Assembly: GCA_038884615.1 (NCBI GenBank)
Contig: JAWABL010000003.1
Span: forward strand, 9,038-73,037
DNA length: 64,000 bases
Origin: Candidatus Woesearchaeota archaeon
GTDB taxonomy: Archaea; Nanobdellota; Nanobdellia; Woesearchaeales; DSVV01
Direction of reading: 5' to 3'
Notes under the pieces: model-generated
Told to the model about the DNA's origin: nothing
The model's database searches: none
The model's input: the letters and a program-made list of their open reading frames with translations, nothing else
Position numbers and translations under genes: made by a program
Shown: positions 2,933 through 57,311 of the stretch, one piece after another
How positions within the stretch are numbered: position 1 is the first letter of the stretch
Layout: every line of letters starts with the position of its first letter

Positions 2933-3199
2933 TTTACAAAATCTTATAACAAAAATTTTATAATAATAATTTAAATAACACTCTAATATATGTAGACATA
3001 TCTACTAATTTTGAATTTACATTGCTACATTTATTTTGCTATACTATATTAACTATTATATATTATACTATACTGTATAATTACTGGATATATAGTATTG
3101 TTAGTGTATACATATCTATTCTAATTATTGCTAGGTATCCCAAATTTCTATAATTTCTATAATATACAAAATATACTATATACTATTATATTGCTATAT

Positions 3200-4424: not shown

Positions 4425-4557
4425 ACAAAGCAAGTAAATCTGAGTAATATAAATATATAGCACAAATATATCTTTTTTGATTACTATCAAATAATAGTTC
4501 CAAAACATTTATATGCAGTAAGATATAACCGAATGTTTTAAAGTTGGGGGGTCAAGC

Positions 4558-8805: not shown

Positions 8806-8958
8806 TCAGAAGCTGTTTAGGTTTAAAAAACATGCAAATGGAAAATCTAGGTATAGCAGAAGGGATACATATTGCATTAAAAAACAAGACTAAAACAGGA
8901 TTTAACATAAAGAAATAAAATATAAAAATTTTATAATACATTTAGAATGTTTTTAGAA

Positions 8959-9150
8959 TCATTTTTTCTCAATTTTAATGCAAGAAACTGGGCAGCTGTC
9001 GGCTGCTTCCTTTGCACAACCAATATTGTCTACAACATCTTTTTTTGGAACTGATTTCCCACCGACCATCTTAAACATGCTTTGGCATACTGAAACACAC
9101 GCGCCACAACCAATGCATTCGTCTTTATCTACAGTTATCTTAAATGCCAT
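8959..9150 (-). CDS. 4Fe-4S ferredoxin (two-cluster type)
   Basis: 63 aa with CIGCGACVSVC and CAKEAADSCPVSC cysteine motifs. Confidence 0.8.
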   Translation of the reverse strand: MAFKITVDKDECIGCGACVSVCQSMFKMVGGKSVPKKDVVDNIGCAKEAADSCPVSCIKIEKK

Positions 9151-9332
9151 GCTACCACCTCCTCTACCGGTTGGAATAAATCAATTAGTTTAAAAAGTTA
9201 ATTATTTCTTTAAGTTTTTTGTTTGAATAAACCTTTTTTTGTAAGCTATAATTTAGAATAGTGACTGTAGTAAGCAAAAATTAAAGAAAAGCTCTATAAA
9301 AAGTAGCAATACAAGAGTAGAAATTAAATATT

Positions 9333-9791
9333 TTATTGGTCTTTTTTAATATTATTTTTTTTGACTATTATATTCTCTCCACAACGAACTCTTCCGCCTA
9401 TTACGACCTGCGCGAATATACCTTCTTTTGGCATTATACAACTGCCAGCTAATTTTGCAATTTTGCACGGCGCATGGCACTCCTTTCCAATCTTTGATAC
9501 TCTAAGCACCACTCTACCTATCTGCAAGAGGCACCCTATTTTCAATTTATGAAGCTTGACTCCCTTTGTCGTCAGATTTTCGCCAAAGCTTCCATGCTTA
9601 AAGCAGTGCATGCTTGTTGAGCTTTTCTTGAACCTTTCATAGGATTCAACAGCAAGCAGTGAAACTTGCCTTTTTCCTGGAGAAGCGTGAACATCGCCTT
9701 TTAATCCATAGTTTTTAATAAATACAGCGGTTTTAACAGGACGCTTCCTCCCTTTCACACGGCTTATGTTTATGGACACTATTTTCGCCAA
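9333..9791 (-). CDS. MOSC (MoCo sulfurase C-terminal) domain protein
   Basis: 152 aa, MOSC-like beta-barrel signature (LKGDVHAS...ENLTT.G). Last gene of the Moco operon, overlapping the end of moeA. Confidence 0.7.
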   Translation of the reverse strand: MAKIVSINISRVKGRKRPVKTAVFIKNYGLKGDVHASPGKRQVSLLAVESYERFKKSSTSMHCFKHGSFGENLTTKGVKLHKLKIGCLLQIGRVVLRVSKIGKECHAPCKIAKLAGSCIMPKEGIFAQVVIGGRVRCGENIIVKKNNIKKDQ

Positions 9792-11722: not shown

Positions 11723-12969
11723 AATAGATTCACCTCTATGCTTTCGCCGGTGTTGTACCCCTCAACATTTTCTGGAACAACTACAACGCCACTTGCTTCT
11801 GCAACTGTTCTTAGCGCGCTAGCACCTCCAAGCCTGAAAGGTAAAACGCAGTTCCTCTCAATTTTAACTCTAACAAAGTCTGTTCTTCCTGCTTGTGATG
11901 CGATTTTTCCAGTCAGTTTGTATTTCGCCTTACGCAGATGATCAAACGGATTGAAGTCGCACCCTTGCATTTTATATATTGCCGGCCTTACAAAAGCCTC
12001 AAACCCAATGAATGCTCCTACTGGACTGCCAGGAAGAAGAAAGATAGGTTTTTTTTTAACAACACCAAACCCGGCTGGACTTGCAGGGCGCATTGAAACG
12101 CCGTGAAAAACAAGCTTGCCCTCATCCAAAACTACGATAGGCGCGAGATCTTTCTCCCCAACAGATGTACCACCAGTAATTAAGATTATATCTTCAATAC
12201 ATGAAAGAATCGCTTTCTTAATTTTTTCTTTGTCATCCTTTACAATAGGCTTTATAGAAGGCAAAGCTCCAGAATCCTTAGCAAGCGCAGCAAGCATTGG
12301 GCTGTTTGAGTCAATTGTTTTAAACGGCCGTCTCTTTCTGACAATCTCATTACCGGTTGCAATGATCGCCACCGTTGGTTTTTTGAAAACGCGAACTTGT
12401 GTCTTGTTGAGGTTTGCCAAAATGCCTATGTGTTCTGGCCTAATTTTTGTTTTTTTTCTTATTGCAACATCACCTTTTCTGAAATCATCTCCCGCATGGA
12501 TAACATTTTTGCCTGGGGGAACTGCAGCAAATACTTTCACAAGATGGTTTTTCTCCTCAGTGTATTCTGCCATAACAACTGCGTTGGCATTTTTCGGAAG
12601 CATAGCGCCAGTCATTATCTTTATAGTTGTGCCCTGCTTCAGAGCTAGCTTAACTTTTTTTCCAGGAAAGGCCTCACCTACAATAGGCAGCTCAATCGGA
12701 TTTAGAGGGGAAGCACCGAATGTATCCTCGGCGATTACAGCATAACCATCCATTGCAGAACGGCTGAAAAGAGGAATATCAAACCTAGCTACAACATCTT
12801 CCGCAAGTATTCTATTTGGCGCGTTTAATATGTCCACTACTTCGACTTCAAGCTCTGGCGTTGTTCTTTTTACTAGTAGCAAAGCGTCTTGAAAGCGCAT
12901 TTTTTTCAAAAACCCTTTCATCCTAACATCTGTTTTGTCATCTATAAAGTTTTTTGACATAAGACTCAT
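11719..12969 (-). CDS. moeA: Molybdopterin molybdenumtransferase MoeA (second, stand-alone copy)
   Basis: 416 aa with MoeA motifs (MDGYAV, IATGNEIV, GGTSVGEKD, LPGSPVG). Start/stop overlaps its neighbours (operon). Confidence 0.85.
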   Translation of the reverse strand: MSLMSKNFIDDKTDVRMKGFLKKMRFQDALLLVKRTTPELEVEVVDILNAPNRILAEDVVARFDIPLFSRSAMDGYAVIAEDTFGASPLNPIELPIVGEAFPGKKVKLALKQGTTIKIMTGAMLPKNANAVVMAEYTEEKNHLVKVFAAVPPGKNVIHAGDDFRKGDVAIRKKTKIRPEHIGILANLNKTQVRVFKKPTVAIIATGNEIVRKRRPFKTIDSNSPMLAALAKDSGALPSIKPIVKDDKEKIKKAILSCIEDIILITGGTSVGEKDLAPIVVLDEGKLVFHGVSMRPASPAGFGVVKKKPIFLLPGSPVGAFIGFEAFVRPAIYKMQGCDFNPFDHLRKAKYKLTGKIASQAGRTDFVRVKIERNCVLPFRLGGASALRTVAEASGVVVVPENVEGYNTGESIEVNLF

Positions 12970-12972
12970 GCC

Positions 12973-13512
12973 TCAACCGCAAACATGCCCAACAATATGC
13001 CCTGCCTCCGGAAGAATTAGTTTCTCAAGAGCAAGCCTGCAGGCTCTCGGACTTCCTGGGATGCAGAAAACAGCCTTACCCTTTGCTGTCCCTGCTGTTG
13101 CTCTTGAAAGCATAGCTGCGCTTCCTATTTTGTTATAGCTAGTGAGCGAAAAAAGCGCGCTGAAGGAAGAAAGCTCTTTTTCAAAAAACGGCCTTACCGC
13201 CTCAATGGTGACATCGCTTTTTGCAATCCCTGTACCACCGGTAAAGATAATTACATCTGAGTTTCCTTCACAAAGCCGGCGCAGCTCGTCTCTGATCGCC
13301 TTTTTATCGTCTTTTACAATGGAGTATGAAACAACATAGTGCCCTTCCCTGCTCACGAGTTCAGCAATAACCTTTCCGCTTATATCATTTTCCTTTGTTT
13401 TTGTCGTGCTAACAGTAACTAAAGCAAACTTAAGATGGCTCGGCGCAGAAGCCTTATGCTGTTTTGAAGTGTCCACATGCTCGCAGTTCTCTTTATCGCA
13501 CATTACTCCCAC
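12973..13512 (-). CDS. moaB: Molybdenum cofactor biosynthesis protein MoaB/MogA
   Basis: 179 aa with the FTGGTGIAKSDVT motif typical of the MogA/MoaB family. Confidence 0.85.
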   Translation of the reverse strand: MGVMCDKENCEHVDTSKQHKASAPSHLKFALVTVSTTKTKENDISGKVIAELVSREGHYVVSYSIVKDDKKAIRDELRRLCEGNSDVIIFTGGTGIAKSDVTIEAVRPFFEKELSSFSALFSLTSYNKIGSAAMLSRATAGTAKGKAVFCIPGSPRACRLALEKLILPEAGHIVGHVCG

Positions 13513-13946
13513 TTAACCTTTTTTTTGACTTGGACATCTGATATTTTTGCATGGTTGTACTGGCCCGTCACGTCCTTCTCAAGGTATTTTACCATGTCCC
13601 ATATTGTAAGAAGAGCAACTGACACACCGACAAGGGCTTCCATTTCAACGCCTGTTTTTGCGTCTGCACTGACCTCGCACATCGCCTTTATTCTATCCTT
13701 CCTAACTAAAAAGTTAAGAGAAACAAGATCAAGTTGTATGTTGTGACAGAGGGGGATAAGCAGTGAAGTCTGCTTGGCAGCATTTATCCCGGCAATCTCA
13801 GCTGCAACAAGAGGGTCACCTTTTTTTATTTTTCCTGCCCTTACAGCATCTATAGTGGTATCCTTAAGAAAGATTGAACCTACTGCAGTCGCGCTCCTTT
13901 TTACTGGCTTTTTTTGGCTTATGTCAGTCATCGCCATTTTAACCAT
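13503..13946 (-). CDS. moaC: Cyclic pyranopterin monophosphate synthase MoaC
   Basis: 147 aa with conserved MoaC core (LIPLCHNIQL...EMEALVGVSVALLTIWDM). Confidence 0.9.
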   Translation of the reverse strand: MVKMAMTDISQKKPVKRSATAVGSIFLKDTTIDAVRAGKIKKGDPLVAAEIAGINAAKQTSLLIPLCHNIQLDLVSLNFLVRKDRIKAMCEVSADAKTGVEMEALVGVSVALLTIWDMVKYLEKDVTGQYNHAKISDVQVKKKVKWE

Positions 13947-14054
13947 AATTAAAGCATCTATTCAATTCTCTTTGTACTCAGTTATTTCACTTAGATGTAC
14001 ACAATATATACATCTATGTATGTTAGTATTATCATCCACTGGATTATTCATGTA

Positions 14055-14906
14055 TTATTTAAGCGGTTTTCTGTTTGCTGGTCTGCTTTGCAAAACAGGT
14101 GCGAATGCACTTTGCTGGATAGGCACTGCTTCTTTCATCAAGCATTCTTTAATCCTGCCATCTGCGCTTATTCTTATCTTGTTGCATGACTCGCAAAACT
14201 GCGGTGATGGAGTCACAGTTTCAACAAACATTGTGCCAAAATGATAGCGTTTCCGCGCTTGCATTTTGCGCTTCTCTTGCCAGTCGCATTTTTCTGCGAG
14301 GTGCTTTTCGATATGCAAAAGAGGGAGGTGTAATCTTTGATAGTCTTCGTCGGTTACTCTACCAAGCTTTATAAGTTCTATAAGTTGCAGGTTGACATTA
14401 TACTGCATGCAAAAATCTAGCATCGGAAAAATCTCAGTATCGTTAACACCTTTCAAAACCACCATATTAAGTTTTACCTTGATATTTGCCTTTTTTGCAA
14501 AAAGTATCGCAGATTTGATGCGCTCTGTGTTTTTTGGAAGTGCTTCAGACAGACTGTCGCATCCGATATTGACTCTGTCAAGTCCTGCACGACTGAGTTG
14601 TTGTGCATATTTCGGTAACATGAGTCCATTTGTTACAAGCGAGACCTCCAAATAGCCGATTGAGTTTGCAATGCTCACTATCTGCACAATATCTTCCCTA
14701 AGCAATGGCTCTCCGCCTGTGAGTTTAAGAGTTGTTATTCCTGCGGCATTTGCAGCCTCAAGCAGACTCTTTATTTGAATAAGGCTCATCTCAGCTTCGT
14801 TTTCTACGCTGCCTTCTTTATGGCAGTAGAAACAGTCTAGGTTGCACTTTTCTGTGACGCTTAAGCGGAGGTGCGTCTTTTCCCTTCCTAAAGAGTCAAT
14901 TATCAT
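14055..14906 (-). CDS. moaA: GTP 3',8-cyclase MoaA (radical SAM)
   Basis: CNLDCFYCH radical-SAM cysteine triad, LKLTGGEPLLR and the MoaA C-terminal region. The ATG overlaps the stop of the upstream regulator (ATGA). Confidence 0.85.
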   Translation of the reverse strand: MIIDSLGREKTHLRLSVTEKCNLDCFYCHKEGSVENEAEMSLIQIKSLLEAANAAGITTLKLTGGEPLLREDIVQIVSIANSIGYLEVSLVTNGLMLPKYAQQLSRAGLDRVNIGCDSLSEALPKNTERIKSAILFAKKANIKVKLNMVVLKGVNDTEIFPMLDFCMQYNVNLQLIELIKLGRVTDEDYQRLHLPLLHIEKHLAEKCDWQEKRKMQARKRYHFGTMFVETVTPSPQFCESCNKIRISADGRIKECLMKEAVPIQQSAFAPVLQSRPANRKPLK

Positions 14907-17142: not shown

Positions 17143-19881
17143 TCAATTTTCACAGTTTTTCCATTTTCTTATTGCTTGCAGAACCTCAGATGGAGTCGCA
17201 ATACCAGACTGCCAGATAGACATGTACGCAGAAAGTTCAGTTGTTGAGATAAAGGCATCATTATTTATGTTTGCTGGATGTACACATCTCCTTATTGCAG
17301 AAGAGTTTGTGCATGAAAACGCGCCTATGTCAGTGCCGCCTTCGCCATTACCGCATGCAGGGCTTGTGTTTTTTGGTCTTAAATCCCTCGCTAAATAATC
17401 AACAAACTGAGGATCCTTGCCTATTATATCATGCATGGCAGCTCGCGAGGTGTCTCCAGCATTGAAAAGAAGATTATAGTCGCCGGTTACATTACCGCCA
17501 TCAGACGCCCAGTAGTTTGAGCTCATATTATAAAAGATGTTATTTTTCACCATGTTCCCTGTTGAGCCTGACCTAAACCCAGCCCCATGATAGTATATAT
17601 CAACAAAGGTATTTCCGATAACAGATATATTGTATATATCATGAACACATATGCCCCAAGCGCCTCCGCCTGCAAAAACATTTTTTCTAAAAGTTAGGTT
17701 ATAAGAGTGTTTGTACCTACCAGATTCGCCCATAAACCCCTGGTGAAAATCGTAACAAGTGTTGTTCTCAACAAGGATGTTTCGTGCATGCTCCCCATTG
17801 TTATCAAATGTCTGGAAACAATCTACATGAGCAGAACCGATTTCGTTAAACTTCGTGCCGAAAAACAAGTTATTCCGCAGGGTATGATTGTCTCCGAAAA
17901 AACGCGTATAATCACAATCTCCCATAACACCATAATTATAAAGCCGTTCTATTACATTGCCTTCAACAACAACACCATCGCCAGCTATAACTATACCCAT
18001 TTGAGGCTTGTAAAGTTTATTTTCTTTTATAAGTCCGCCTGTGCCACTCATAGATATTCCAGTTGATCTTGTTTCGTGAAGATAGTTTCTTAATATTGTA
18101 ATACTTCTTCCTTGGGCAGATATGCCTCCTGTAAACTGTCCATTGCTTGTTATATTGAAACCATCTAATGTGATAAAATCGCCGTTTATGCTAAATCCTC
18201 TTACTACAGTGCTCCAGTTTTCTGCTTTTATAACAATCCGCCTGCTCTGTGTACCGCTTGTTGTGACACTAACTTTCTCGTTGTATGTCCCAGCAAAAAC
18301 AAAAACAGTCTGGCCTGGCTGAACCCTGTTGACAGCTGACTGTATGGTGGAGTATTCTTGCCAAGAAGCAGGCGTATCATCAACACAAAGGACATCAGAC
18401 TCAGAACAAAATGAATCAAACGAAACAATTGGCACATGATATTCAAATGCGCCTATATCTGGAGAGTAGCGTATGTTCCCAAGTATATCCTCATTAGGCA
18501 TGGGACCTTGTGCTGCATCTATTGCAGGACTGCTTTTGTTAAGCGTCGCAAACTCAAAGACAAGCCGTTCAAATTCCTGCCTTATTGTCCTGCTTCCGCT
18601 TTGAAAAAGAAAACTTGTTTCATCAAATACAGGCAGAACTAATTGATTAGGATAAGGAAGCAACGGATCTGCTATTATTTTTGTGTTGTCAAGCCCAGGG
18701 TTTACTGCGCCATCAAGAGGAAGAGGACTATTATTGTTCCAGAACAGGTTTCTTGAAAGAGTTAGCGTTGAAACATCAACATTTCCATAAACAGTTCCCA
18801 GCCGGTTCATTGTTCCCGTCGGGTCGCTGAATATATTATTTTGTATGTAAAAACCATGTACTTGAGGGTTATTTCCCTCTGTTCCTATCCTAAATCCGTA
18901 GGAGCTTCCGGGCATATTGCCTACAAAGGTATTTGCTCTTATTGTTATATTCTCGGCACCTTTTAACTGAACAGGTGCAGAAAAAAGATTGTAGCTGTTC
19001 CCAATAAAAAGGTTGTTTTCTATAACAGAGTTTGTTATCATAAACTCGTTATTCTCGTCCTCACCAAATTGTATAAACGCCTGGTCGCTTCTTCCATCCC
19101 AATTGAGAAAAATATTTTTATGTATCCTATACCTTGGGTTTCGCGCCGGCGTATAGGCACTAGATATGTTATGAGCCGGCACTTCTCTTTTCAAAGTAAT
19201 AAAAGACTGCGAATTTGGCGAATTTCTAGAAAAAAATATGTTTTCATAGATGTCAAGCTCGCCGGCCCTAACAGAATCAATCATATCAGAGCCTGGTGAG
19301 TCAGCAGGGTCGTAAAAAATGTTTCCTTTTATATGTATATTATGCGGATACATTAGTTCATTGCCTCTGTTTATTTTTAAAAGTTCATTGCACGTCCCAG
19401 GAGCATTATTTCCATAAACTATATTGTTTTCAAAAATTATATCTGATGCATCCTGAAAATGCACCACATAGTATGTTTCCCTGCTGTTACACTTATAGTT
19501 TGGGTGTGCATTTGTAATTATAAATCCAGAAACATTAATCTTTGCCGAGCCTTTTGTATAGATGTCAAATACATCTTCGCCATTTTCAAAATTGGTTAGC
19601 TTTGCCCGATAAGAATTTTCAGCCCTTATTGTCACCCAGTTGTCAAAAGTTCGAGTTATCACAGTTCTTCCTTTATATACTCCATCTTTTACAATTATAG
19701 TCCCTCCTGTGCTAGGGATTGACTCAACTGCATGTCCTATACTTTTCCACGGATTGGACTCAGAACCGTCTCCAACCAAGTCAGAGCCAACGGAAGAAAC
19801 ATAATATTTTTGTGCAGATACATGCTCAAGTAATAACGTCGTAAAAATAAGAAGCAGAATTATGAAGGTTCTTCTTTGCAT
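17143..19881 (-). CDS. Secreted right-handed parallel beta-helix repeat protein (pectate-lyase-fold, adhesin-like)
   Basis: 912 aa. Signal peptide (ILLLIFTTLLLEHVSA). Many degenerate beta-helix coil repeats (NNIFYN, GNTFVDIYYHGAGF, N.F..N style rungs). Confidence 0.75.
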   Translation of the reverse strand: MQRRTFIILLLIFTTLLLEHVSAQKYYVSSVGSDLVGDGSESNPWKSIGHAVESIPSTGGTIIVKDGVYKGRTVITRTFDNWVTIRAENSYRAKLTNFENGEDVFDIYTKGSAKINVSGFIITNAHPNYKCNSRETYYVVHFQDASDIIFENNIVYGNNAPGTCNELLKINRGNELMYPHNIHIKGNIFYDPADSPGSDMIDSVRAGELDIYENIFFSRNSPNSQSFITLKREVPAHNISSAYTPARNPRYRIHKNIFLNWDGRSDQAFIQFGEDENNEFMITNSVIENNLFIGNSYNLFSAPVQLKGAENITIRANTFVGNMPGSSYGFRIGTEGNNPQVHGFYIQNNIFSDPTGTMNRLGTVYGNVDVSTLTLSRNLFWNNNSPLPLDGAVNPGLDNTKIIADPLLPYPNQLVLPVFDETSFLFQSGSRTIRQEFERLVFEFATLNKSSPAIDAAQGPMPNEDILGNIRYSPDIGAFEYHVPIVSFDSFCSESDVLCVDDTPASWQEYSTIQSAVNRVQPGQTVFVFAGTYNEKVSVTTSGTQSRRIVIKAENWSTVVRGFSINGDFITLDGFNITSNGQFTGGISAQGRSITILRNYLHETRSTGISMSGTGGLIKENKLYKPQMGIVIAGDGVVVEGNVIERLYNYGVMGDCDYTRFFGDNHTLRNNLFFGTKFNEIGSAHVDCFQTFDNNGEHARNILVENNTCYDFHQGFMGESGRYKHSYNLTFRKNVFAGGGAWGICVHDIYNISVIGNTFVDIYYHGAGFRSGSTGNMVKNNIFYNMSSNYWASDGGNVTGDYNLLFNAGDTSRAAMHDIIGKDPQFVDYLARDLRPKNTSPACGNGEGGTDIGAFSCTNSSAIRRCVHPANINNDAFISTTELSAYMSIWQSGIATPSEVLQAIRKWKNCEN

Positions 19882-28349: not shown

Positions 28350-28930
28350 TATAAAAGTGACCTCCTTCCCGCATTAAAGTGCGGGGCTTCCGGTGAAGTG
28401 GCTTAGGAGCTTTTGGTGTACATCCATTTGCTTCCGGATGTAGTTGTCAACGGTTTCTACAGTGTTATACCCCACACTGCTCACGAACGCACAGGGACTG
28501 AAGAAAGGTCCTCGATGATAACGTAACCGAAACTTTGGCTGCCGTCTGAACAGCTGATAGCTCAAGTTTCCTTTCAGCAACTGCAACACCTTTCTGACTC
28601 ATACTCGGTGAGCTTCAACACTCATGTGTATGTGCTCTGGCATCACGAATAGCTCCCTTATTGTGATGTGATACCTGTCTGCTGTCTCTCTCAAAATTTC
28701 CTCGCAAAGATTTTTATACTTGTCCTGCTCAAACATCTTGTACAAGTACTTTGTGCGCATATTGTTTCAGTTCCATCTTGCTCGCCTTGGGCGAGCAAAA
28801 GCTCACGCTAACTTGAATTGGATGGTGCGTGGCGCGAAAATCCGCTCGCCACGCTTTTTTATTTTTGTACTAGAAAAAGCTTTTGAGCCATTCATCTCAC
28901 GCACTAAAGTGCGGAGATTTCTGGTTCATA
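28350..28930 (-). mobile_element. Decayed IS200/IS605-family element (~580 bp): subterminal hairpins at both ends and a tnpA disrupted by an in-frame TGA
   Basis: Similar hairpins CCCGCA-TTAAAG-TGCGGG (28367-28384) and CGCAC-TAAA-GTGCG (28900-28913) bracket a Y1 HuH transposase gene. A 9-bp perfect hairpin TTGCTCGCC-TTG-GGCGAGCAA (28778-28798) lies just upstream of the tnpA ATG. GC content is clearly higher than the surroundings. Confidence 0.6.
28374..28760 (-). pseudogene. tnpA: IS200-like tnpA (HuH Y1 transposase) with an in-frame TGA at 28599-28601
   Basis: Translation from the ATG at 28760 gives MRTKYLYKMFEQDKYKNLCEEILRETADRYHITIRELFVMPEHIHMSVEAHRV, then TGA, then VRKVLQLLKGNLSYQLFRRQPKFRLRYHRGPFFSPCAFVSSVGYNTVETVDNYIRKQ. 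This matches the IS200 TnpA HuH motif, the LKGKSS motif, and the W..GYFV.TVG...E.I..YI.NQ motif containing the catalytic Tyr. Confidence 0.65.
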
Positions 28931-29031: not shown

Positions 29032-30303
29032 ATGCATAAAAATGGACAGGTAACTATATTTATTATTATAGGAATTATTATTTTAAGTTTGCTTGCACTC
29101 ATTCTAACTGAGATTAGACCTGGTGTAGAGAAAGAAGAGATTATATCAAGCAATTTGCAGTTTATAGAGAGAGTGAAAACCCACATAGGAGAGTGTTCTC
29201 AGAAAACTCTTGAGCATGCTGTATATTTCACAGGAATGCAGGGAGGATATACACATCCGCCAAATGAGCCAACACCAATGGAGTTTGATGGATACATAGT
29301 TCCATTTTATCTGTTCAACAATGAAACATACATCCCAGATAATGAATTATTAGAGAAAGAGATGGAGTCATATGTAATTGAGCATATAGATGAATGTGTG
29401 AAAGGACAACACACTTTAAATTACTCAGGGTACAAATACAAAACAGGAGCAGTAAAAGCAGAGATAGTTATAACTCAAAACAAAATAAAGATGAGAATGG
29501 AGTATCCGATGGAGTTTTTTACCAACAAAACAAGCTTCAAAATAAGCGACAGTTACTTTTCAGAATTAAGATTTGATTATGCCAAAAAAATAAATCTATT
29601 CCAAGAGATTGTTGAACAGTTAAAAAAAGAGCAGAAAACAATTCCGCTTGGGATACTGGGTGATTTATCAGAAAAAGAAAATTTCAAGTTTGGCATAGTG
29701 GATATAGGGCTTGGAAATAATATCATATACTTTGTATTCAATGAGTCTATAAGCCCAGGAAAACCGTACCTGCATATATTTGCATTTACAAGAGAAGCAA
29801 TTTATGAGAATTTAGCACCCCATGTATTTGTTGAGAAAAAAGCGGTTGTTGGTTACCCCTTTCATATGCAAATCAACATAAGTCCGCCATTTTCTGACAC
29901 TACAGACCTTTTTGAGATAAATACAACAACAGGAGAGATTGATTTTACCCCTAAGGAGGAAGATGTAGGCGAACATTTTGTATATCTGGAAGGGAGAAAT
30001 AAAGAGAGCATTACTCTTAAATTGAGCATATTGCCTGCGAAAAGTGAGCTGGCAATAAAGGATATTGGAACAAAAGAATGCAGTGTAGGTGCCGAATGTA
30101 TGATTAACATTTCAGTAGAAAGCAACGAAACGCATAAAGTATTTTTCATTGTTAACAGCACTCTTGATATGGGTGACACAACTAATGGCATAATCAGCTT
30201 TGTTCCTGATAAGTCTCAAAAAGGCATACATCGTGTAAGGGTCGATGCGTACAGTAGTGCAGGGTCGCACGATTTTGAATTTTTCAATATAATAATAGAG
30301 TAG
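29032..30303 (+). CDS. Secreted or membrane-anchored protein (423 aa) with a pilin-like N-terminal hydrophobic segment and C-terminal Ig-like beta domains. Its N-terminal ~250-aa module is paralogous to that of the 57309-61094 protein.
   Basis: N-terminus MHKNGQVTIFIIIGIIILSLLALIL. Conserved blocks shared with the 57309 protein (I(G/E)(E/S)C, G(M/A)(Q/T)GG(Y/V)(T/Y)(H/N)P, VKAEIVI/VTAKISK). Confidence 0.6.
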   Translation: MHKNGQVTIFIIIGIIILSLLALILTEIRPGVEKEEIISSNLQFIERVKTHIGECSQKTLEHAVYFTGMQGGYTHPPNEPTPMEFDGYIVPFYLFNNETYIPDNELLEKEMESYVIEHIDECVKGQHTLNYSGYKYKTGAVKAEIVITQNKIKMRMEYPMEFFTNKTSFKISDSYFSELRFDYAKKINLFQEIVEQLKKEQKTIPLGILGDLSEKENFKFGIVDIGLGNNIIYFVFNESISPGKPYLHIFAFTREAIYENLAPHVFVEKKAVVGYPFHMQINISPPFSDTTDLFEINTTTGEIDFTPKEEDVGEHFVYLEGRNKESITLKLSILPAKSELAIKDIGTKECSVGAECMINISVESNETHKVFFIVNSTLDMGDTTNGIISFVPDKSQKGIHRVRVDAYSSAGSHDFEFFNIIIE

Positions 30304-30382
30304 TGGTATAATAAGAAGGAATAATGAGCAGAAAAAGTAAGCATGACAACAAAAAAGTGATAATCCTAACAAAAGAAGCACA

Positions 30383-33300
30383 ATGAAAATGAAAAAAAAG
30401 AAACTAAACATTATAGCTTGGTCTTTGCTGTTTATAATAACCTTGCTAATAACAAACGCACAGGAAAGTAATTTAGAAGAGAATACAAAAGCGGAGTATA
30501 ATGGGCTTATCTTTGGTACTGCACAGCAAGAGATAGTTACAAACCCAAGTGGAGATATTGTGTTAAGCGGAGGAGTACAAGTGGAGGTCTTGCCTACTTT
30601 CTCAGGAACTTTAATTGGTGGCTTTGGCGGCTGCATAATAAAAGCCGAAGGCACTACACTGATTCTTATAGAAAGATCAGTTGTGAAGATTAAAAATGGA
30701 AAAATAACCGAGATAATAAACGCGGATGTGAATGAGGAAGCGGTTTTAGCAGGCCACAAAGTTATTGGCAAAAGTATAAGTTTGATTTCGGATACGATTA
30801 GGTGTGGAGTGTCATGCACAATCGACGGTGTTCATATTAAAAATTTAAATCCAGAACAGCCACTCAAAATCTCTTTTTCTGAACAAGGTTTCTTGCTTGA
30901 ACCTGCATCCGTCAGCACAACTGCTGAAATTAATGGAGCGCGCATAAGACTCCATTATGGAAGTAGTATTAGCATAAATGATGGAAAGATTGCAGGATTC
31001 AAACTTGTCGACATACTTGACTCCGTGAACATTAATGGTTTTGATATCAAAGGGAATAAGCTAAGCTACAGCAAAGGTGAAATAAGTTTTTATAGGATTT
31101 CTATAAATCGCCTTAATTTTCAGTCTGGGTACTCCATTGAAGAAAATGTTAAAAATGTAATAACCTTATATGGCAATGGAGAGTTTGCTATCAAGAACGC
31201 AAACATGATTTATCAAACAAACAGAGAAGGAGAGGTTATAAGGCTTTATGAAGCAGGAGATTATCTTTTCTCAGGAGATAGTGAGGTAGAGTTTACCGCA
31301 CAAAACGCTAATTTTAGTGTTTATAATATAGCTGATAGCGTTATAAGGGTTACTGGAGTAACAGAATCAACAAAATTTTTTATTGGCGAATCACCCGAAA
31401 AAAATAGCTGCGGACAAGAAAAAAACTGCGTTGAGTTTACAAGCGCCCAAACATTATATTCCTCGCTTGAAAAGAAGAATAAAATAGAAATAAGTGGATA
31501 CTCAGACAGTTTCCCATTTAGGCTCGTAGACTCGCGAATCTCTGAAGATGCAGAGTTTTCTGTTGGTTCACAGAAGTTTTTATTTACGCAGAGAAATATG
31601 CAAGAGAGCATATCGGATACCGTGCTTCCAAAAGATTTAAATGCAATTATAATAAGGGATGAAAATGGCGGAAGGGTTATTGACTCTACAAGCTATACTG
31701 GCGTTTATGAAGAAATGAATGGAGAGAAGATTGCTTCATTCTCTGCCGAAGTAATGTCAAAAGTTTTAAGGGAACATGAAGAGAGACTGGGATTTTCTAT
31801 AGATAAGTTTCTAGTTGCTCAAGAGAACATAGATTCATTGCAGAAACAGGGCGTAGAAAAAGAGATAATAGATTTCGTACTTGAGTTATATAGGAATCCG
31901 GTATATCTGCTCAGCAAAGATGATATCTCATTCTTGGGGACTTACCTTAACAGGATAAATAAGGAGCACTCTTTTGCGTATGATGTTGTTAGGGAGTATA
32001 TTTTGAGAGAGAGAGAGTACAACGCCAATATCATTGATGAGCTTATCAACCTATACAAGGAAATGCCTAATAGCAGATTCTCAAGGGAGTTAATAACACA
32101 AATGAAACCAAGAGAGTTTTTAAGCCTTGATGCATTAAAGGACCTTGTTGATTTTTCAAAGGAAGAAGATGTCACAAAAATAAGTGACCTCTATTTTGAA
32201 ACAGGAGGAATTCGTGCAATGTCAGACCTTGCTTACCTGGCTAAAACTCATGAGGTAGGTGTCCATAGCTCGGATGACTTTTTTCATTTTATATATACAA
32301 TAATTGACTCCGGCTATGACAAACCGCCTGATTTAGCTTACCCTCCTGAAAAAATGAGGGATATGTACAGATTTTATCTGTACACAGCAAAAGACATGGA
32401 GAGGCTCGCTGTAAGAAAAGAGGGAGATCTTGCACCTGTTACCACATTTTTAGCACTTGAGTTATACATGAAACCGCTGGAAAAAGGGGATGAAAACACC
32501 CTCAATGCATTAAATGAGTTCAGCAACGGACAAGTAGAGTTTGATAGCATGTTATTTAAAAGTAAACCATCCTTTAAAGTGCTTCCTACAGGCCTTCTTG
32601 AGTATAAAGGAGAACCAATTGAGTATAAGAATTTAGACCCCTTAAAGAGGGTGGTTAGTTATATGGACTCTGTTGCTCTTGATGAATCAGTGTCTATTGA
32701 AGAGAGGGAAACACTGTCAGACTATCTTATGTATAAGTCACAGTCACTCTATTTGTATTTGAACGGCTTGCATAACAATAAAAATTTGCGAGAGGAGTTT
32801 GTTAAAAAAATCCCACCTGAATTGTTATTTTACATGATTGCATCATCAGAAAACAATTTTGGAACAATAAGTTATCCAAGCGGACCGCCACAGGTGTATC
32901 CAAGCAGTGAAGAGGTTGTATTGAATTACTATAAAAGCAAAGTAAATCCTCTTCAAGATGCTCTAAAGTATGAAGGACTTCCTGCCTATTCTAATTTTGT
33001 ATACACTCTATCTGACAGAAAACAGATAGACGGATTACTGATAGAAGCGTCACCAGAGGTACAAAGGCATTACACAGAATTTCTTCTTGAAGAGGTTACT
33101 AATCCTAAAGAGAGCGAAGAAGATTATTACAGCAGGACAAAAGTCGCGACTTTAACAATCGGAAGGATTCTGAAGAATGATAAGCAGGAAACCGCAGAGA
33201 CAAGAGAGATGCTTAAAGATGAGATTATCAGTGCGTTAACATCTGATGATTCAAACCTATATTTGCAGTATCTCGTTTTAGACAATAAGAATATTTTTTC

Positions 33301-34084
33301 AGAAGAGGAACTTGATTTATTAGGCTACGACAAAGAGAAGGAAGATTTTCCTAGCTTTGCTCAAAATGTAAAGGATGCTTTTGCATCCAAAAATATTGAT
33401 ATCAAGAGGCTAATTCGAAAGGAAAATGATGGGAGCTATATTTTGCCTTCTGCTATATTCTTCGGCTCACTTCATGAAAAGCAGGAGCAGTACCATTATG
33501 ATAACCTAATTAAAACACTGAAAGAAGATGGCTTTAAGGAGGTGTATCTTAAAGATGTAGAGGAATATTCAGGAAAAAAAATTTCATATGTGCAATTTGA
33601 AAAGATAGTGCCTGTTACATATGAAGATTCTGACGGGGGTCATATTTTAAATGTTAAGATTAAAGTTAATCTGTATCCTAGGATAGCAAGTGAATCGGAC
33701 GAAGTCCCAACAATTGTTTCAACCCGCGGACATGTAGGGACTTCAGCGGCCACATTAGAAAGTTTTCAAGATAAGACGGCACCCGAATTAGTCATCTTTG
33801 GAGGATGCTATGAGTACAGAGACGCTTTTAAGTTTTTCAGCGAATATTCTAATATGCAAATGGCATACGCAACAACTGGAACAGGTAGAGGAGAGATAAA
33901 TAACTACATATTAACAGGTGTCTTTGAAGCTATACAAAAAGGCATTACAGATAGGGAGAAAATGGCGCAGTTTATTGATTCATATGTTCAGACAAAAATA
34001 AAAATGCGCAGTGATCTTAGATTGGCTTTTGAAAGCTACTCACAAGTACCGCAACTGGCAAAAATAAGATATAGTGAAGAATAG
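30383..34084 (+). CDS. Large secreted protein (1233 aa): Sec signal peptide, N-terminal beta-rich ~400 aa, then a long alpha-helical Tyr/Glu/Lys/Leu-rich region. Function unknown.
   Basis: Signal peptide MKMKKKKLNIIAWSLLFIITLLITNAQ. No TM anchor and no recognisable catalytic motifs. Confidence 0.65.
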   Translation: MKMKKKKLNIIAWSLLFIITLLITNAQESNLEENTKAEYNGLIFGTAQQEIVTNPSGDIVLSGGVQVEVLPTFSGTLIGGFGGCIIKAEGTTLILIERSVVKIKNGKITEIINADVNEEAVLAGHKVIGKSISLISDTIRCGVSCTIDGVHIKNLNPEQPLKISFSEQGFLLEPASVSTTAEINGARIRLHYGSSISINDGKIAGFKLVDILDSVNINGFDIKGNKLSYSKGEISFYRISINRLNFQSGYSIEENVKNVITLYGNGEFAIKNANMIYQTNREGEVIRLYEAGDYLFSGDSEVEFTAQNANFSVYNIADSVIRVTGVTESTKFFIGESPEKNSCGQEKNCVEFTSAQTLYSSLEKKNKIEISGYSDSFPFRLVDSRISEDAEFSVGSQKFLFTQRNMQESISDTVLPKDLNAIIIRDENGGRVIDSTSYTGVYEEMNGEKIASFSAEVMSKVLREHEERLGFSIDKFLVAQENIDSLQKQGVEKEIIDFVLELYRNPVYLLSKDDISFLGTYLNRINKEHSFAYDVVREYILREREYNANIIDELINLYKEMPNSRFSRELITQMKPREFLSLDALKDLVDFSKEEDVTKISDLYFETGGIRAMSDLAYLAKTHEVGVHSSDDFFHFIYTIIDSGYDKPPDLAYPPEKMRDMYRFYLYTAKDMERLAVRKEGDLAPVTTFLALELYMKPLEKGDENTLNALNEFSNGQVEFDSMLFKSKPSFKVLPTGLLEYKGEPIEYKNLDPLKRVVSYMDSVALDESVSIEERETLSDYLMYKSQSLYLYLNGLHNNKNLREEFVKKIPPELLFYMIASSENNFGTISYPSGPPQVYPSSEEVVLNYYKSKVNPLQDALKYEGLPAYSNFVYTLSDRKQIDGLLIEASPEVQRHYTEFLLEEVTNPKESEEDYYSRTKVATLTIGRILKNDKQETAETREMLKDEIISALTSDDSNLYLQYLVLDNKNIFSEEELDLLGYDKEKEDFPSFAQNVKDAFASKNIDIKRLIRKENDGSYILPSAIFFGSLHEKQEQYHYDNLIKTLKEDGFKEVYLKDVEEYSGKKISYVQFEKIVPVTYEDSDGGHILNVKIKVNLYPRIASESDEVPTIVSTRGHVGTSAATLESFQDKTAPELVIFGGCYEYRDAFKFFSEYSNMQMAYATTGTGRGEINNYILTGVFEAIQKGITDREKMAQFIDSYVQTKIKMRSDLRLAFESYSQVPQLAKIRYSEE

Positions 34085-34251: not shown

Positions 34252-35178
34252 TTATTTTCTTATCATATCGTCTGACAAAAATACTGAAAGCCAGTTTCTA
34301 TCTACACTGTTTGCCTTAAATTCTTCCCTTAGTCCTGTTCCATACCTAACTACAGTAACGGTTGTGCCCACATCAACTAAAGAAAACAAATCATCTATAT
34401 CCTCGTTTGAAAGTGCAAAACATCCGTGTGTCCAGTTGCTTCCGCCATAATTTCCGGGTTTGCCGCTTCCCCCTCCGTGAATTTCAATTTGCCCTCCAAT
34501 AGAAGTATTTTTTGCGATGACTCCTCTTTTTCTTAAATCGGCAAACCGTTCAAGGTTGGATTTATTTGGATAGTTAATAAGGAGTGCTTTATAAAAAACA
34601 GTTTGGCCCTTATCTTTCTTAGCTAAAATTGAGTATTTTCCTTCTGGAGACCTATAATCGCCTTCCTGTTGCTTATCAAATATTGGGTCATAGCCAAGTT
34701 CCAAAGGATACTGCCTTATTACCTGCCCATCCTTTAAAAGAGAGAGTGTATATTCCGACTTATCAATGATTATTGCACTTTGCTTAGTTCTTAATGAATA
34801 CCCCATTGCTTCATTAATCCATGACAAGTATTTCGTCAAATCTGAGTTATTAAATTCATATATGATGGCCATGTTCCTAGCATAACTTCTCCATTCATTA
34901 TCAATTATTCTTTTTTTTAAATCCTCAAACAACTCTCCAGACAGGTTTACCTTGTCTGAAAGTTCTTTTTCCGTTATATTTTTTAAAGTAGATTGTGGCT
35001 TACCACCAGAATTTGGAAAAAAGGTATTTGACTCTTTTAAATCAGGTTTATTAGTGCCAATAAAGTTAATACTATATTTATTAAGTGTAGACATACCTAA
35101 ATAAAGTAGTCCGGCAATGCAGCCAGCACTTATTGCAGCCCCTAAACCATTAGTGATATAATCTTTCATATTTTTCAT
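34252..35178 (-). CDS. L,D-transpeptidase (YkuD) domain protein with an N-terminal membrane anchor
   Basis: Catalytic motif IHGGGSGKPGNYGGSNWTHGCFALSNEDIDDL (His...Cys of the YkuD fold). N-terminal TM GLGAAISAGCIAGLLYLGM. Confidence 0.75.
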   Translation of the reverse strand: MKNMKDYITNGLGAAISAGCIAGLLYLGMSTLNKYSINFIGTNKPDLKESNTFFPNSGGKPQSTLKNITEKELSDKVNLSGELFEDLKKRIIDNEWRSYARNMAIIYEFNNSDLTKYLSWINEAMGYSLRTKQSAIIIDKSEYTLSLLKDGQVIRQYPLELGYDPIFDKQQEGDYRSPEGKYSILAKKDKGQTVFYKALLINYPNKSNLERFADLRKRGVIAKNTSIGGQIEIHGGGSGKPGNYGGSNWTHGCFALSNEDIDDLFSLVDVGTTVTVVRYGTGLREEFKANSVDRNWLSVFLSDDMIRK

Positions 35179-44764: not shown

Positions 44765-45613
44765 CTAAAGAACCATTGCTGCATACTCGCACATCGACAT
44801 AAGCTTTATTTTATGTAGATTAGCTTTAATAAACTCAACAACTGTATCCCAATACGCTTTTCCTCCATTATAGAACTTCTGAGAGTGCATTGAGATAATT
44901 ACTGCTTTTTTTATTTCAATCTCCTTTTTTAGCATTCTTTCAAGCTCGCTGTTTGAAATGCCAGCAAGATGCCAATTATAGTCCATACCAAGAAGTTTAC
45001 ATTTATTGTCTCTTATATATTGTGGAACGCCTATCACTTTTATTCCAAAATGCATCCTAAGAAAATCGCCTGCATGAGACGTATCGTACTGATAGCCGAG
45101 CTCTCGAAGCGCTTCATACATCGCGTCATTATAGCTTAAATACGGCGCACGGAATCCAACAGCCTTATATGGTCTGCCATTTTTAAAAAATAGTTTCTCA
45201 ATATGCCCATCAAACTCAGAAAGCTCATCAACCCACTGCTGCTTGCTCCAATTTTTTCCATTTTTTCCTCCATCATAATGCCTTACTGTATGCGAACCGA
45301 TCTCATGCCCCTCTTCTATTGCCTTGCTCATCAGCTCCAGTCTTTTAGATATGTCCTGCTTTGAAGAACATCCTAAAGTTGACCCACCTTTTATGGTTTC
45401 AAAAAGGCTCACAGTGTTTATAAAATAGGTAAACTTTGTTTGACATCCTGAGAGTTCAGACAACTCCCTTGAGAGGCGCAAGGACTCATTAATAGTATCA
45501 GTGTAACTAATTCCATCTATACATAAGATTAGCGGTTTTCTTTCTCCTAAAACAGCATCAATGCCTACACCAACAAGCCCTTTAATAAACTGCCTTCTGT
45601 TGATAGTATTCAT
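44765..45613 (-). CDS. NodB-type polysaccharide deacetylase (CE4) with a Tat signal
   Basis: N-terminal NRRQFIKGLVGVG twin-arginine motif. CE4 His motif GSHTVRH and Asp-containing motif 1. Confidence 0.78.
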   Translation of the reverse strand: MNTINRRQFIKGLVGVGIDAVLGERKPLILCIDGISYTDTINESLRLSRELSELSGCQTKFTYFINTVSLFETIKGGSTLGCSSKQDISKRLELMSKAIEEGHEIGSHTVRHYDGGKNGKNWSKQQWVDELSEFDGHIEKLFFKNGRPYKAVGFRAPYLSYNDAMYEALRELGYQYDTSHAGDFLRMHFGIKVIGVPQYIRDNKCKLLGMDYNWHLAGISNSELERMLKKEIEIKKAVIISMHSQKFYNGGKAYWDTVVEFIKANLHKIKLMSMCEYAAMVL

Positions 45614-46422: not shown

Positions 46423-47745
46423 ATGCTTAAAATAATGTCTAAAATGCGCATTGCAATATTCACTGACACATTTCACCCAGAAGTTAACGGGGTGGTCTTC
46501 TCAATCTTGAACTTTTCAAAAATTCTTGCAGAAAGGGGCCATGTAATAAAGATATTTGCACCTAGACACAAACACGATATACCGCTAAAACTGCCAAAAA
46601 ACATATCAATTGAAAGACACTATTCAGTTCCACTAGCAACATACAAAGATGTAAGCATCGTATTTCCAAACATTTTTAGGATAGTCCGCCGAATAAAAAG
46701 GTTTGCTCCTGACATGATTCATATTCATAGTCCATCAACCATGGGGCTCGCCGGGCTTTTTGCAAGCAAGACGCTGAAGATTCCTACAGTAGGAACTTTC
46801 CATACATTATTAACTGAGCAAACAACATATGTTTCACTTGCACGAATAACCAGATTTGACAAAGTAAAAGAAAAAGCGATTGACAAGCTTATGAGCAGTT
46901 TCCTAAATAAAGTTATGAAAAATGCTAATAAGAGTAAAATAAAAAGGAAAATAGAAAGACACCTTATAAGAAAGGTCAGACTAAAAAAAATCAAGAAGAA
47001 GGGAGACAGTAGGGTTATATGGTTCTTGCTTGCAAAGTTTTATAACTGCTGTGATGTTGTAACAACACCTACAAAAATAATTAGGAAGGTGCTTATCGCC
47101 AATCACATAAAAGCAAAAAAAATAAGGGTATTGTCAAACGGAATTAACATGGGAAGATGGCGCAGAAAAAAATGCTATAAGAGAAGCAACATAGTCATAC
47201 ATGTAGGAAGGATTGGTTTTGAAAAAAATATTGATGTGCTCATACATGCTATAAAGATTGTTACAGAAAAAAACCCAAAGATAAAACTTTATATTGTGGG
47301 CATGGGACCTGCTGAGGCAAGTATTAAAAGTCTTGTAAATCGTCTTGGCATTGAAAAAAATGTTAAATTTATTGGCAAAGTAGCGCATGAAAAGCTCTCT
47401 AGATACTATACAAAAGCGGATGTTTTCGCCACTGCAAGCACGATGGAAACCCAAGGTCTCGTAATTCTTGAAGCAATGGCATGCGGACTTCCAATTGTAG
47501 GAGTAAATAAGTATGCCATCCCTGAAATAGTCAAGCATGAAAGGAACGGATTTATTGTCCGGCCTTTTGACCCAAGTTCTATGGCTGAATGCATAAAACT
47601 CTTAATTGAAGATTATTCCCTTCGTAAAAGGATGGGCAAGCAAAACATAGATGATATAAAAGCACATAACCTCGGTGTGGTTGTTACCTTACTTGAAAAG
47701 ATATACAAAGACTGCATTCAGCATTATAGAAATAAAGAGAGGTAA
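46423..47745 (+). CDS. GT4-family glycosyltransferase (GT-B fold) with a ~90-aa basic insertion
   Basis: N-terminal FHPEVNGV..., C-terminal E..G(L/I)V.LEAMACGLP(I/V)VG motif. The insertion lies around residues 150-240 (KKIKKKGDSR...). Confidence 0.8.
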   Translation: MLKIMSKMRIAIFTDTFHPEVNGVVFSILNFSKILAERGHVIKIFAPRHKHDIPLKLPKNISIERHYSVPLATYKDVSIVFPNIFRIVRRIKRFAPDMIHIHSPSTMGLAGLFASKTLKIPTVGTFHTLLTEQTTYVSLARITRFDKVKEKAIDKLMSSFLNKVMKNANKSKIKRKIERHLIRKVRLKKIKKKGDSRVIWFLLAKFYNCCDVVTTPTKIIRKVLIANHIKAKKIRVLSNGINMGRWRRKKCYKRSNIVIHVGRIGFEKNIDVLIHAIKIVTEKNPKIKLYIVGMGPAEASIKSLVNRLGIEKNVKFIGKVAHEKLSRYYTKADVFATASTMETQGLVILEAMACGLPIVGVNKYAIPEIVKHERNGFIVRPFDPSSMAECIKLLIEDYSLRKRMGKQNIDDIKAHNLGVVVTLLEKIYKDCIQHYRNKER

Positions 47746-47840: not shown

Positions 47841-48668
47841 TTATGCTCTTTTTAGTCCTATTGCAAACAAGAAGGCTTTTCTAAGTAAAACCTTTTTTTT
47901 GTTAAGCTGTGCCGTTTTATAGCCGAAGTTATCAACAACCCTAAGCGGTTTGAGCCAACCTGCGTTATGAACCACAGGAATAACCTCACCAGATTTCAGG
48001 TAAAATATTCCTTTTTTGATGAAGAAAGGTTCTCTTGCAACAGAGGGTATGAAATTATATTTCTCGGACAATTCAACAAAGCCATGCTCATAGAGATAGA
48101 AGTTTATAAATAACTGGTCGGCTCCAAACATCTTTTTATCTATTTTAGAGAGAGTTTCCTTACAGAGTGTTTTTAAAAGCCTGCAATTCCCTATAATAAG
48201 TCCTGTGTTTATCATTTTTTTGCCTTGTATATAATTTAGAAGGTTTAAAAACTCGTGTTTTGTACCTGTCTTAAAAATAAGCAAAGATAGCTTAATAAAG
48301 CGGGATTGAATAAGATTTTCGCAAACGACCCTAAAACTTTTTTTATTTTCTTCGAAGAGGTGGCTTATATCCTTTTGAAATATGATATCACCACCATCAC
48401 AGAACATAATCTGGTCGTATTTTTTGTGCGTAAGGAAAGTAGCTGCATCCCTAAAGCGATTGATGACAATTGGACCATCATTTACACACCTGTAAAGTAT
48501 GGCTCCATGCTCCTTGAGTACGCTTCTTTGCTTTTCCGACATACCATAGTCAAGCACAACAACATCAATATCCTTTAGATTCACATTTGTGCGAAGCGAA
48601 AAAAACCAGTGATTTACAAGAAAATCGCCGCATTTTTCATCAGAACAGGTAATGATTGCATTTTTCAC
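47841..48668 (-). CDS. Putative GT-A-fold nucleotide-sugar transferase-like protein
   Basis: 275 aa. Rossmann-like N-terminal region with an Asp-rich segment (FCDGGDIIF). Weak. Confidence 0.4.
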   Translation of the reverse strand: MKNAIITCSDEKCGDFLVNHWFFSLRTNVNLKDIDVVVLDYGMSEKQRSVLKEHGAILYRCVNDGPIVINRFRDAATFLTHKKYDQIMFCDGGDIIFQKDISHLFEENKKSFRVVCENLIQSRFIKLSLLIFKTGTKHEFLNLLNYIQGKKMINTGLIIGNCRLLKTLCKETLSKIDKKMFGADQLFINFYLYEHGFVELSEKYNFIPSVAREPFFIKKGIFYLKSGEVIPVVHNAGWLKPLRVVDNFGYKTAQLNKKKVLLRKAFLFAIGLKRA

Positions 48669-57236: not shown

Positions 57237-57311
57237 AGCGGGATAGGGCAGTCAGGAGTGCCCGATGGGCTCATAACCCATAGGTCGATGGTTCAAATCC
57301 ATCTCCCGCTA
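57237..57311 (+). tRNA. Initiator tRNA-Met (anticodon CAU)
   Basis: AGCGGGA-TA-GGGC-AGTCAGGAGT-GCCC-G-ATGGG-CTCATAA-CCCAT-AGGTC-GATGG-TTCAAAT-CCATC-TCCCGCT-A. The A1:U72 pair and three G-C pairs at the base of the anticodon stem are hallmarks of the archaeal initiator. Confidence 0.8.

Follow-up and report, generated by a model that had tools for sequence, protein, structure and literature searches.

Genes at the locus

We analysed a stretch of 64,000 nucleotides (nt) from a Candidatus Woesearchaeota archaeon (assembly GCA_038884615.1, contig JAWABL010000003.1, positions 9,038 to 73,037 of the forward strand), referred to below as the window. The study centres on two adjacent genes, A and B, and on a distant gene, C, whose product begins in the same way as that of A. 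Gene A (QXK37_01250, 29032-30303, plus strand) is an open reading frame (ORF) of 423 amino acids (aa), and its product is 100% identical to a hypothetical protein of a Candidatus Woesearchaeota metagenome-assembled genome (MAG). Gene B (QXK37_01255, 30383-34084, plus strand) starts 79 nt past the stop codon of A, and its 1233-aa product matches the NCBI hypothetical protein QXK37_01255 at 100%. Gene C (57309-61094, minus strand) encodes 1261 aa. When A, B and C were compared with Pfam, NCBIfam and PHROG, nothing rose above noise.

The N-termini of A and C read MHKNGQVTIFIIIG and MKHSQVSLFIILG, respectively, and among all window ORFs these two are the only ones with the motif. In A, residues 1-28 (29032-29115, plus strand) comprise a class III-like leader, MHKNG, followed by Q6, F10 and G14 (positions +1, +5 and +9) within a hydrophobic helix. 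They open a module of residues 1-255 (29032-29796, plus strand) that is built of a helix (4-69) and an alpha/beta domain and holds C55, C122 and a QGGY motif at 70-73. The remaining residues, 257-423 (29800-30300, plus strand), form a C-terminal extension. In C, the module again takes up residues 1-255 (60330-61094, minus strand), with the leader MKHS ahead of Q5, F9 and G13, and residues 256-1261 (57312-60329, minus strand) constitute a Cys-rich and Ig-like passenger, whose homologue in another genome is a partner protein with a gene of its own. The mature parts would thus begin with QVTIF in A and QVSLF in C.

The spacer between A and B (30304-30382, plus strand) is 79 nt long and has no T-run. 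A scan for sigma-70 promoters and terminators was set aside as not meaningful for an archaeon. The N-terminus of B (residues 1-27, 30383-30463, plus strand) consists of MKMKKKK, LNIIAWSLLFIITLLIT and NAQ. On inspection of the translation, this K-rich n-region, 17-residue h-region and NAQ have the anatomy of a Sec signal peptide, in agreement with the original prediction, made from the DNA letters alone, of a 1233-aa secreted protein some 80 bp past gene A.

A and C share an N-terminal module

It had also been predicted that the N-terminal regions of A and C align over about 250 aa. A single BLASTP comparison joined only residues 3-76 of A with residues 2-80 of C (28% identity, E=2e-4). Since this alignment alone is too short for such a claim, and part of it is the hydrophobic helix, we turned to a profile hidden Markov model (HMM) that was trained on A plus three homologues from the database (P0002-P0004), excluded C and omitted the first ~28 residues. 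It matched residues 36-212 of C at 53.9 bits, whereas none of 2000 shuffled versions of this region scored above 10.1 bits. An exhaustive profile search, in which C itself was part of the profile, aligned C over residues 1-260 (E=6e-77).

In the multiple alignment, two Cys residues (C55 and C122 of A), a G-x-x-GG-(Y/V)-x-x-P block and a YP motif stand in register; the cysteines and the block had been noticed in the original prediction. These alignments indicate that the N-terminal module shared by A and C is real, with a length of about 210-255 aa that comes near the predicted span, and that the likeness is significant against shuffled sequences. The HMM of the whole family recognises A at 1.5e-66 and C at 1.3e-47.

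Residues 1-256 of A were modelled with AlphaFold2 from a 73-sequence alignment, with a mean predicted local distance difference test (pLDDT) score of 93.7 and a predicted template modelling (pTM) score of 0.83. In the model, the N-terminal half contains helices 4-28 and 30-69, three short strands and a helix at 104-125. A six-stranded region (135-180), two helices (183-216) and three long strands (218-253) make up the remainder. C55, in the first long helix, and C122, in the second helix, are invariant across the family, and a disulfide between them probably stabilises the module. The invariant or near-invariant residues are C, G, Y, P and F, and conserved His, Asp, Ser, Glu and Lys are absent from the family alignment. 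With no invariant polar residue of a catalytic type, a structural or binding role is favoured over catalysis.

Beyond the module, the original prediction placed an Ig-like region in A. A itself has no Pfam match there, and the proposal is supported at the level of the family: among relatives of 300-500 aa, He_PIG is found in 16/60 (best 1.3e-12) and Big_9 in 13/60. The alignments also reveal a shared motif, TDLFEI..G.I.F.P...G.H, in this extension. Given the He_PIG and Big_9 matches, the C-terminal 167 residues of A probably comprise two Ig-like repeats.

The module defines a large DPANN family

The exhaustive profile search covered 1.84 billion cluster representatives. At E<=1e-3 it returned 9037 of them; the number falls to 6864 with a threshold of E<=1e-10 and to 1429 with E<=1e-30. 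Among the best 151, 80 are at most 300 aa long and represent the module alone, 59 have 301-500 aa and 12 are longer, up to 1329 aa. In the few public records consulted, members of the family are named 'hypothetical protein'. The 73 module-only members had no consistent match in Pfam or NCBIfam, and no model there covers the family.

An N-terminal pattern scan of one genome per GTDB species gave 376 confirmed relatives, from which 79 loci were kept. All 79 come from Woesearchaeota, Nanoarchaeota, Pacearchaeota, Diapherotrites or unclassified archaeal MAGs. Nineteen public family-bearing MAG records are titled 'uncultured Methanosarcinales archaeon' (loci L008, L011, L012, L017, L019-L021, L025, L027 and others). 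In housekeeping proteins, they are 63-89% identical to MAGs titled Woesearchaeota or Nanoarchaeota, which places these records in the same lineage, and the titles look like taxonomic mislabels. Judged by these searches, the module represents a DPANN-wide, very large and uncurated family that is invisible to Pfam and NCBIfam. The lineage-specific cell-surface family with a common N-terminal module that had been proposed from the window was therefore found, and on a much wider scale.

One part of that proposal failed. Other giant surface proteins of the window had been counted in the same family, and the two in question lack the module. The first (4558-8805, plus strand) is 1415 aa long and contains fn3/Big domains, PGF-pre-PGF (5.2e-19) and, at the C-terminus, a membrane helix; by BLASTP it groups with proteins of 14 loci, the window included. 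The second (17143-19881, minus strand) has 912 aa and a right-handed beta-helix. As neither carries the module, they must use other anchoring routes.

A separate subfamily of 610-740 aa (P0004, P0044, P0090, P0091, P0106) combines the module with a conserved extension of ~350 aa that shows no relation to the Ig tail of A-type proteins or to fused passengers. At L036:1932-6097, two genes of this subfamily lie back to back ahead of one Sec-signal protein.

The N-terminus resembles a class III signal

We examined the N-terminal logo of 146 aligned top representatives. The leader consensus is M-x-K-[KR]-[GAS], followed by Gln at +1, and most leaders place 4-6 residues ahead of this Gln, the start Met counted. 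Upstream of it, position -3 is K in 121/146 sequences, -2 is K or R in 138/146 and -1 is G, A or S in 145/146. From +1 on, the logo shows Q in 146/146, T or S at +3 in 134/146 and G or A at +9 in 141/146, within a stretch that is hydrophobic from +2 to about +22. Position +5 is F in 140 of the 146 and E in none, so the original description of a class III-like or signal-anchor N-terminus without the acidic +5 residue applies to the family as well. The FlaFind core pattern, [KRDE][GA][ALIFQMVED][ILMVTAS]x3, is present in 121/151 family representatives.

The conserved residues give the family N-terminus the layout of a class III (prepilin-type) signal. The spacing of Q+1, F+5 and G+9, four residues apart on one helical face, suggests specific helix packing. 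An ordinary cleaved Sec signal, the outcome that would have spoken against the original prediction, is unlikely because the ~21-residue hydrophobic stretch continues straight into a helix of the folded domain. From the signal anatomy, the balance tilts towards cleavage of the module leader by a class III peptidase.

Module genes and their downstream partners form a conserved cassette

Gene order was studied in 84 related loci together with the window, where 88 distinct family genes have at least 1.5 kilobases (kb) of downstream sequence. In 78 of them (89%), a same-strand ORF of at least 400 aa begins -60 to +160 nt downstream. For other genes of the same loci, used as a control, such an ORF follows in 95 of 841 cases (11%). 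The partner overlaps the stop codon of the module gene in 54/78 cassettes, and most related cassettes have a 4-nt overlap where A and B have a gap of 79 nt. In several loci (for example L010, L018, L065 and L073), two or three cassettes stand in tandem. The partner gene is the sole conserved neighbour of family genes in the related loci, and the adjacency of A and B is an instance of a conserved two-gene cassette.

A signal-peptide-like N-terminus was recognised in 72/78 partners. They are 500-2400 aa long and mostly have no C-terminal membrane anchor of their own, so something must retain them. BLASTP sorts them into at least 9 clusters plus singletons. Modules are 32.6% identical to one another when their partners belong to the same cluster and 24.8% otherwise. 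The length class of the module also follows the partner cluster: modules of 240-263 aa accompany one cluster, and module proteins of 604-875 aa go with partners of up to 2385 aa. Thus, module and partner co-diversify.

Split and fused forms of one architecture

In several proteins, the module is fused to what is elsewhere a separate partner. Residues 317-948 of P0046 align by BLASTP to residues 67-718 of the separate partner at L020 (E=1e-58), and P0024, P0060 and P0103 display the same pattern, each with a passenger that is a partner gene elsewhere. An NlpC/P60-like 'SCIGF/Y' motif, read by eye in fused passengers, was unsupported by Pfam and was discarded.

Gene C belongs to this group. Three of its segments (329-494, 585-716 and 821-942) match the product of L010:9014-12502 at E=1.7e-17, 3.6e-6 and 2.6e-12 in BLASTP. 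That product is a Cys-rich protein of 1162 aa with its own N-terminal signal or anchor and no module, and its gene sits 38 nt downstream of a 259-aa module gene. Downstream of gene C itself there is no partner ORF. The orthologue of C (P0087, 1329 aa) has a canonical MRKGQ leader. By these homologies, A+B and C represent the split and the fused version of a single architecture. That fusions occur alongside separate partners argues strongly, on comparative grounds, for a joint physical action of module and passenger.

These data bear on two alternative explanations. According to the first, there is no functional link at all: A and B are mere neighbours, and the likeness of A and C comes from a biased hydrophobic N-terminus. 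The short BLASTP alignment, confined to the first 80 aa, and the absence of homologues of B would fit it. The profile match obtained without the hydrophobic segment, the excess of partner genes over the control and the fusions already refute this idea, to which we give practically no credence.

The second alternative regards the module as a dedicated extracytoplasmic, membrane-bound chaperone, intramolecular in the fusions, that its cognate giant protein requires for folding, after which the passenger is released. The tight one-to-one pairing and co-diversification agree with such a role, as do the lack of invariant catalytic residues and the lack of anchors on the partners. Against it, the module occurs in stable fusion with complete passengers from several independent partner families, no cleavage site is evident between the two parts, and the conserved N-terminal signal would be left unexplained. 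We consider a chaperone very unlikely.

Passengers are large and diverse

Most passengers contain no domain that library scans could recognise. Ig-like domains are present in a few of them, and Pfam identified SLT (2.6e-21) and DPBB_1 (2.3e-22) in the 2094-aa partner at L081 and Peptidase_M15_4 (3.4e-7) in the 2339-aa partner at L069. Large extracellular lytic transglycosylase proteins are reported in Woese- and Pacearchaeota (PMC8204110). The partners with murein hydrolase domains, which come from the same lineages, match these proteins. In the passages of that report considered here, the giant proteins are described with no upstream module gene or cassette.

An AlphaFold2 model of a typical partner (P0153) had a pLDDT of 61.9 and was confident only at residues 90-480, where a helical bundle is followed by ~28 strands. 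Its best matches in the PDB were insignificant (template modelling score, TM<0.15).

The whole of B, searched against 5.8 billion proteins, found only itself, and it matched no PDB sequence. A link to the largest partner cluster found no support: the HMM of the beta-rich N-terminal domain of this cluster scored 4.8 bits in B, within the range of shuffles (maximum 8.1), and the C-x(6)-C-V-E motif that this HMM lined up in B was not accepted as evidence.

The C-terminal region of B (residues 1000-1233, 33380-34081, plus strand) looks like an alpha/beta domain and contains RGH (1117), IFGGC (1142) and TTGTG, an assignment that we keep as tentative. In phmmer, it weakly resembles the 1270-aa partner encoded at L063:10914-14726 with a conditional E of 1.2e-3 in a pairwise comparison and 0.8 against all locus ORFs. 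Between H1117 and C1142 of B (33731-33808) and the corresponding part of the L063 protein, the elements S-x-RGH, IFG-x-C and TT-x-TG line up. The RGH...IFGxC pair may be the His/Cys catalytic dyad of an alpha/beta domain. A clan CD-like cysteine peptidase is suggested by the motif only, with no support from Pfam, NCBIfam, the PDB or the large database, and a two-sequence profile of the region retrieved nothing from the 5.8 billion proteins or from the PDB. No murein-active domain was recognised in B.

The partners of the closest homologues of A carry a different pair, DHG...(49-54 aa)...SSC/DSC. The idea that it marks a peptidase was dropped, as a PDB profile search gave spurious designer-repeat matches only and Pfam none.

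A proposed presenter module for surface passengers

We propose, with moderate confidence, that a DPANN-specific presenter module with a class III signal holds large, fast-evolving passengers on the cell surface, either in trans or in cis. In the split arrangement (A+B), the passenger is a separate Sec-exported product of the downstream gene; in the fused one (C), it is the C-terminal tail of the module protein. The N-terminal helix would first put the module into the membrane, after which a class III signal peptidase would cut off the leader of 4-5 residues ahead of the invariant Gln. The globular domain of the module would then bind its cognate passenger, and the complex would remain anchored in the membrane or be raised on a type IV filament, most likely at its tip. 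Leader cleavage, physical binding of A to B, association with filaments and a role in attachment are what we infer from the comparative data. The passengers would be adhesin-like or enzymatic, some of them murein hydrolases, and the likely use of the cassettes is contact with the cells of hosts or prey and with the walls of these cells.

A number of observations weigh against this proposal. The FlaFind core pattern misses both A (N-G-Q, with N at -2) and C (H-S-Q, with H at -2 and S at -1). In terms of this core pattern, the FlaFind check that accompanied the original prediction is negative for the two proteins themselves, and it is positive for the 121 relatives mentioned above. HMMs of class III and pilin N-termini gave no convincing match to any member tested: A and C had none at E<=1 with Pfam PF04021 and PF07790 or the NCBIfam class III models, and 73 members yielded no match to the Pfam class III and pilin models and one weak match in NCBIfam (TIGR04205, E=0.011). 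A Foldseek comparison of the module model with the PDB returned no pilin, pseudopilin or other structure at E<0.01.

The genomic surroundings point in the same direction, as neither pilus assembly genes nor small Q+1 pilins are conserved neighbours in the 84 related loci, and the 64-kb window contains no gene for a prepilin peptidase, an assembly ATPase, a platform protein or a small pilin. Moreover, the C-termini of 80 partners have no common motif for docking by strand addition. B, finally, has no detectable relative among the other partners (it is a BLASTP singleton, and phmmer and hhalign gave nothing significant), so its role as a passenger is assigned by position only.

Many of these points would be expected if the module were a plain membrane tether, the main rival explanation. 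Here, the N-terminus is an uncleaved signal-anchor of type II topology and the module is a stalk, with no peptidase and no filaments involved. A single long hydrophobic helix that enters a folded domain fits such a tether, and so do the lack of pilus genes nearby, of pilin HMM matches and of a pilin fold match, and the departure of A and C from the FlaFind core at -2 and -1. Synteny and fusions are explained equally well.

What a tether leaves unexplained is the near-invariant K-[KR]-[GAS]-Q...F...G with its leader of 4-6 residues, in proteins whose soluble domain is only 20-30% identical. A signal-anchor needs hydrophobicity only, whereas the conserved pattern has the anatomy of a class III signal (PMC3875500). 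The location of Q+1, F+5 and G+9 on a single face of the helix, with the specific packing that it suggests, also speaks against a mere anchor. We therefore regard the tether as somewhat unlikely.

Comparison with known surface systems

With regard to the presenter module, the closest signals are those of EppA-dependent pilins. In Methanococcus maripaludis, these have leaders of 5-13 residues with a terminal Gly, then Gln conserved at +1 and Glu at +5 (PMC3875500), and type IV filament (TFF) system 1, the EppA type, is reported in DPANN (bioRxiv 10.64898/2026.04.22.720090). The Epd and other system 1 proteins (DUF361/Class_IIIsignal) share with the module family the short basic leader with Gly at its end, the Gln and a helix of ~20 residues, and some are large, with globular C-terminal parts. 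The family differs from the Methanococcus proteins in having Phe (140/146) in place of Glu at +5, and it is not matched by PF04021 or the NCBIfam class III models. Its 220-aa soluble domain and obligatory partner gene have no described counterpart there.

A second parallel is offered by the bacterial apical minor pilin PilK/PilX/GspK with the tip adhesin PilC/PilY1. There, too, a pilin-like protein without Glu at +5 is found (PMC13533445, PMC7541494); PilK homologues 'invariably lack Glu at +5' (PMC13533445). A second gene, for a Sec-exported non-pilin protein of ~1000 aa or more, accompanies it; both split and fused versions exist (in cis: GspK, CpaL/TadG), and a genome may hold several sets with different adhesins. 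The module, however, resembles GspK/PilK and PilY1 neither in sequence nor in fold. Its partners have no conserved C-terminal strand, PilI/J minor pilins and assembly genes are not nearby, and in the module fusions it is the N-terminus of the passenger, not the C-terminus, that adjoins the module. The parallel concerns the mode of working and not family membership.

It could be taken further, with the module sitting as a subunit at the apex of a DPANN type IV filament, a counterpart of PilK/GspK on an unrelated fold that loads exchangeable effectors. Each cassette would then load a different giant effector (an adhesin, a murein hydrolase or a Cys-rich protein) in trans or in cis. We consider this version rather unlikely.

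Modular pilins such as PilB and PilC of Streptococcus sanguinis also join an N-terminal pilin module to a bulky C-terminal functional domain (PMC8179133, PMC9934059), much like C and the other fused members. They have a recognisable pilin fold and a pil locus, whereas the fold of the DPANN module is unmatched and its passengers, of 1000-2400 aa, are often encoded by separate genes. In the archaeal bindosome, a non-pilin functional protein relies on a class III signal plus a hydrophobic helix at its N-terminus to be assembled on the surface. The signal there is directly on the functional protein; in the DPANN family, a conserved 220-aa adaptor stands between the two, and the passenger is in many cases a Sec substrate in its own right.

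Genomic surroundings

Ahead of gene A lies a relic of an IS200/IS605-type tnpA (28374-28760, minus strand), as noted in the original prediction. It is frameshifted into two minus-strand ORF fragments, one of them with FVMPEHIHMSVEAH, and is flanked on each side by a copy of a small hairpin, CGCAYTAAAGTGCGG, at about 28370-28385 and 28900-28914. The relic occupies the interval between gene A and the gene that ends at 28275, so that today's promoter region of the cassette lies downstream of the old insertion.

Convergent on B is a gene (34252-35178, minus strand) whose 308-aa product has a membrane helix at its N-terminus and the catalytic domain of a YkuD L,D-transpeptidase (Pfam 3.6e-21). The presence of this peptidoglycan-type enzyme in an archaeon fits the idea of a lineage that deals with bacterial cell walls. 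Further along the window, a polysaccharide deacetylase domain protein (44765-45613, minus strand; Pfam 8.5e-12), possibly a cell-wall-modifying enzyme, is encoded near glycosyltransferases at 46423-47745 and 47841-48668.

The region 1982-14906 contains hydrogenase maturation genes (HypD and a HypE-like gene with AIR synthase-related domains) and a molybdenum cofactor biosynthesis cluster composed of MoaA-like, MoaC, MoaB/MogA-like and two MoeA genes, one of the latter with a fused PBP-like domain. A DPANN genome would not usually be expected to hold so much metabolism.

Significance

Woese- and Pacearchaeota are abundant, uncultivated and thought to live on other cells. To our knowledge, their mode of attachment has not been described, and most of their lineage-specific proteins are unannotated. 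The module provides a recognisable handle on these proteins, as it combines a conserved signal with a confidently folded 220-aa domain and is represented by thousands of sequence clusters; such a family merits a curated model. With the handle comes a simple rule, by which the passenger is either the downstream gene or the fused tail. This rule picks out large, fast-evolving surface proteins, some of which degrade the bacterial cell wall. The cassettes are thus candidates for work on host interaction, and they offer a testable parallel to the bacterial tip complex made up of minor pilins together with PilY1. If the module does prove to be an apical filament subunit, the cassettes would amount to an exchangeable toolkit with which these small symbiotic archaea find, grip and breach host cells, bacteria included.

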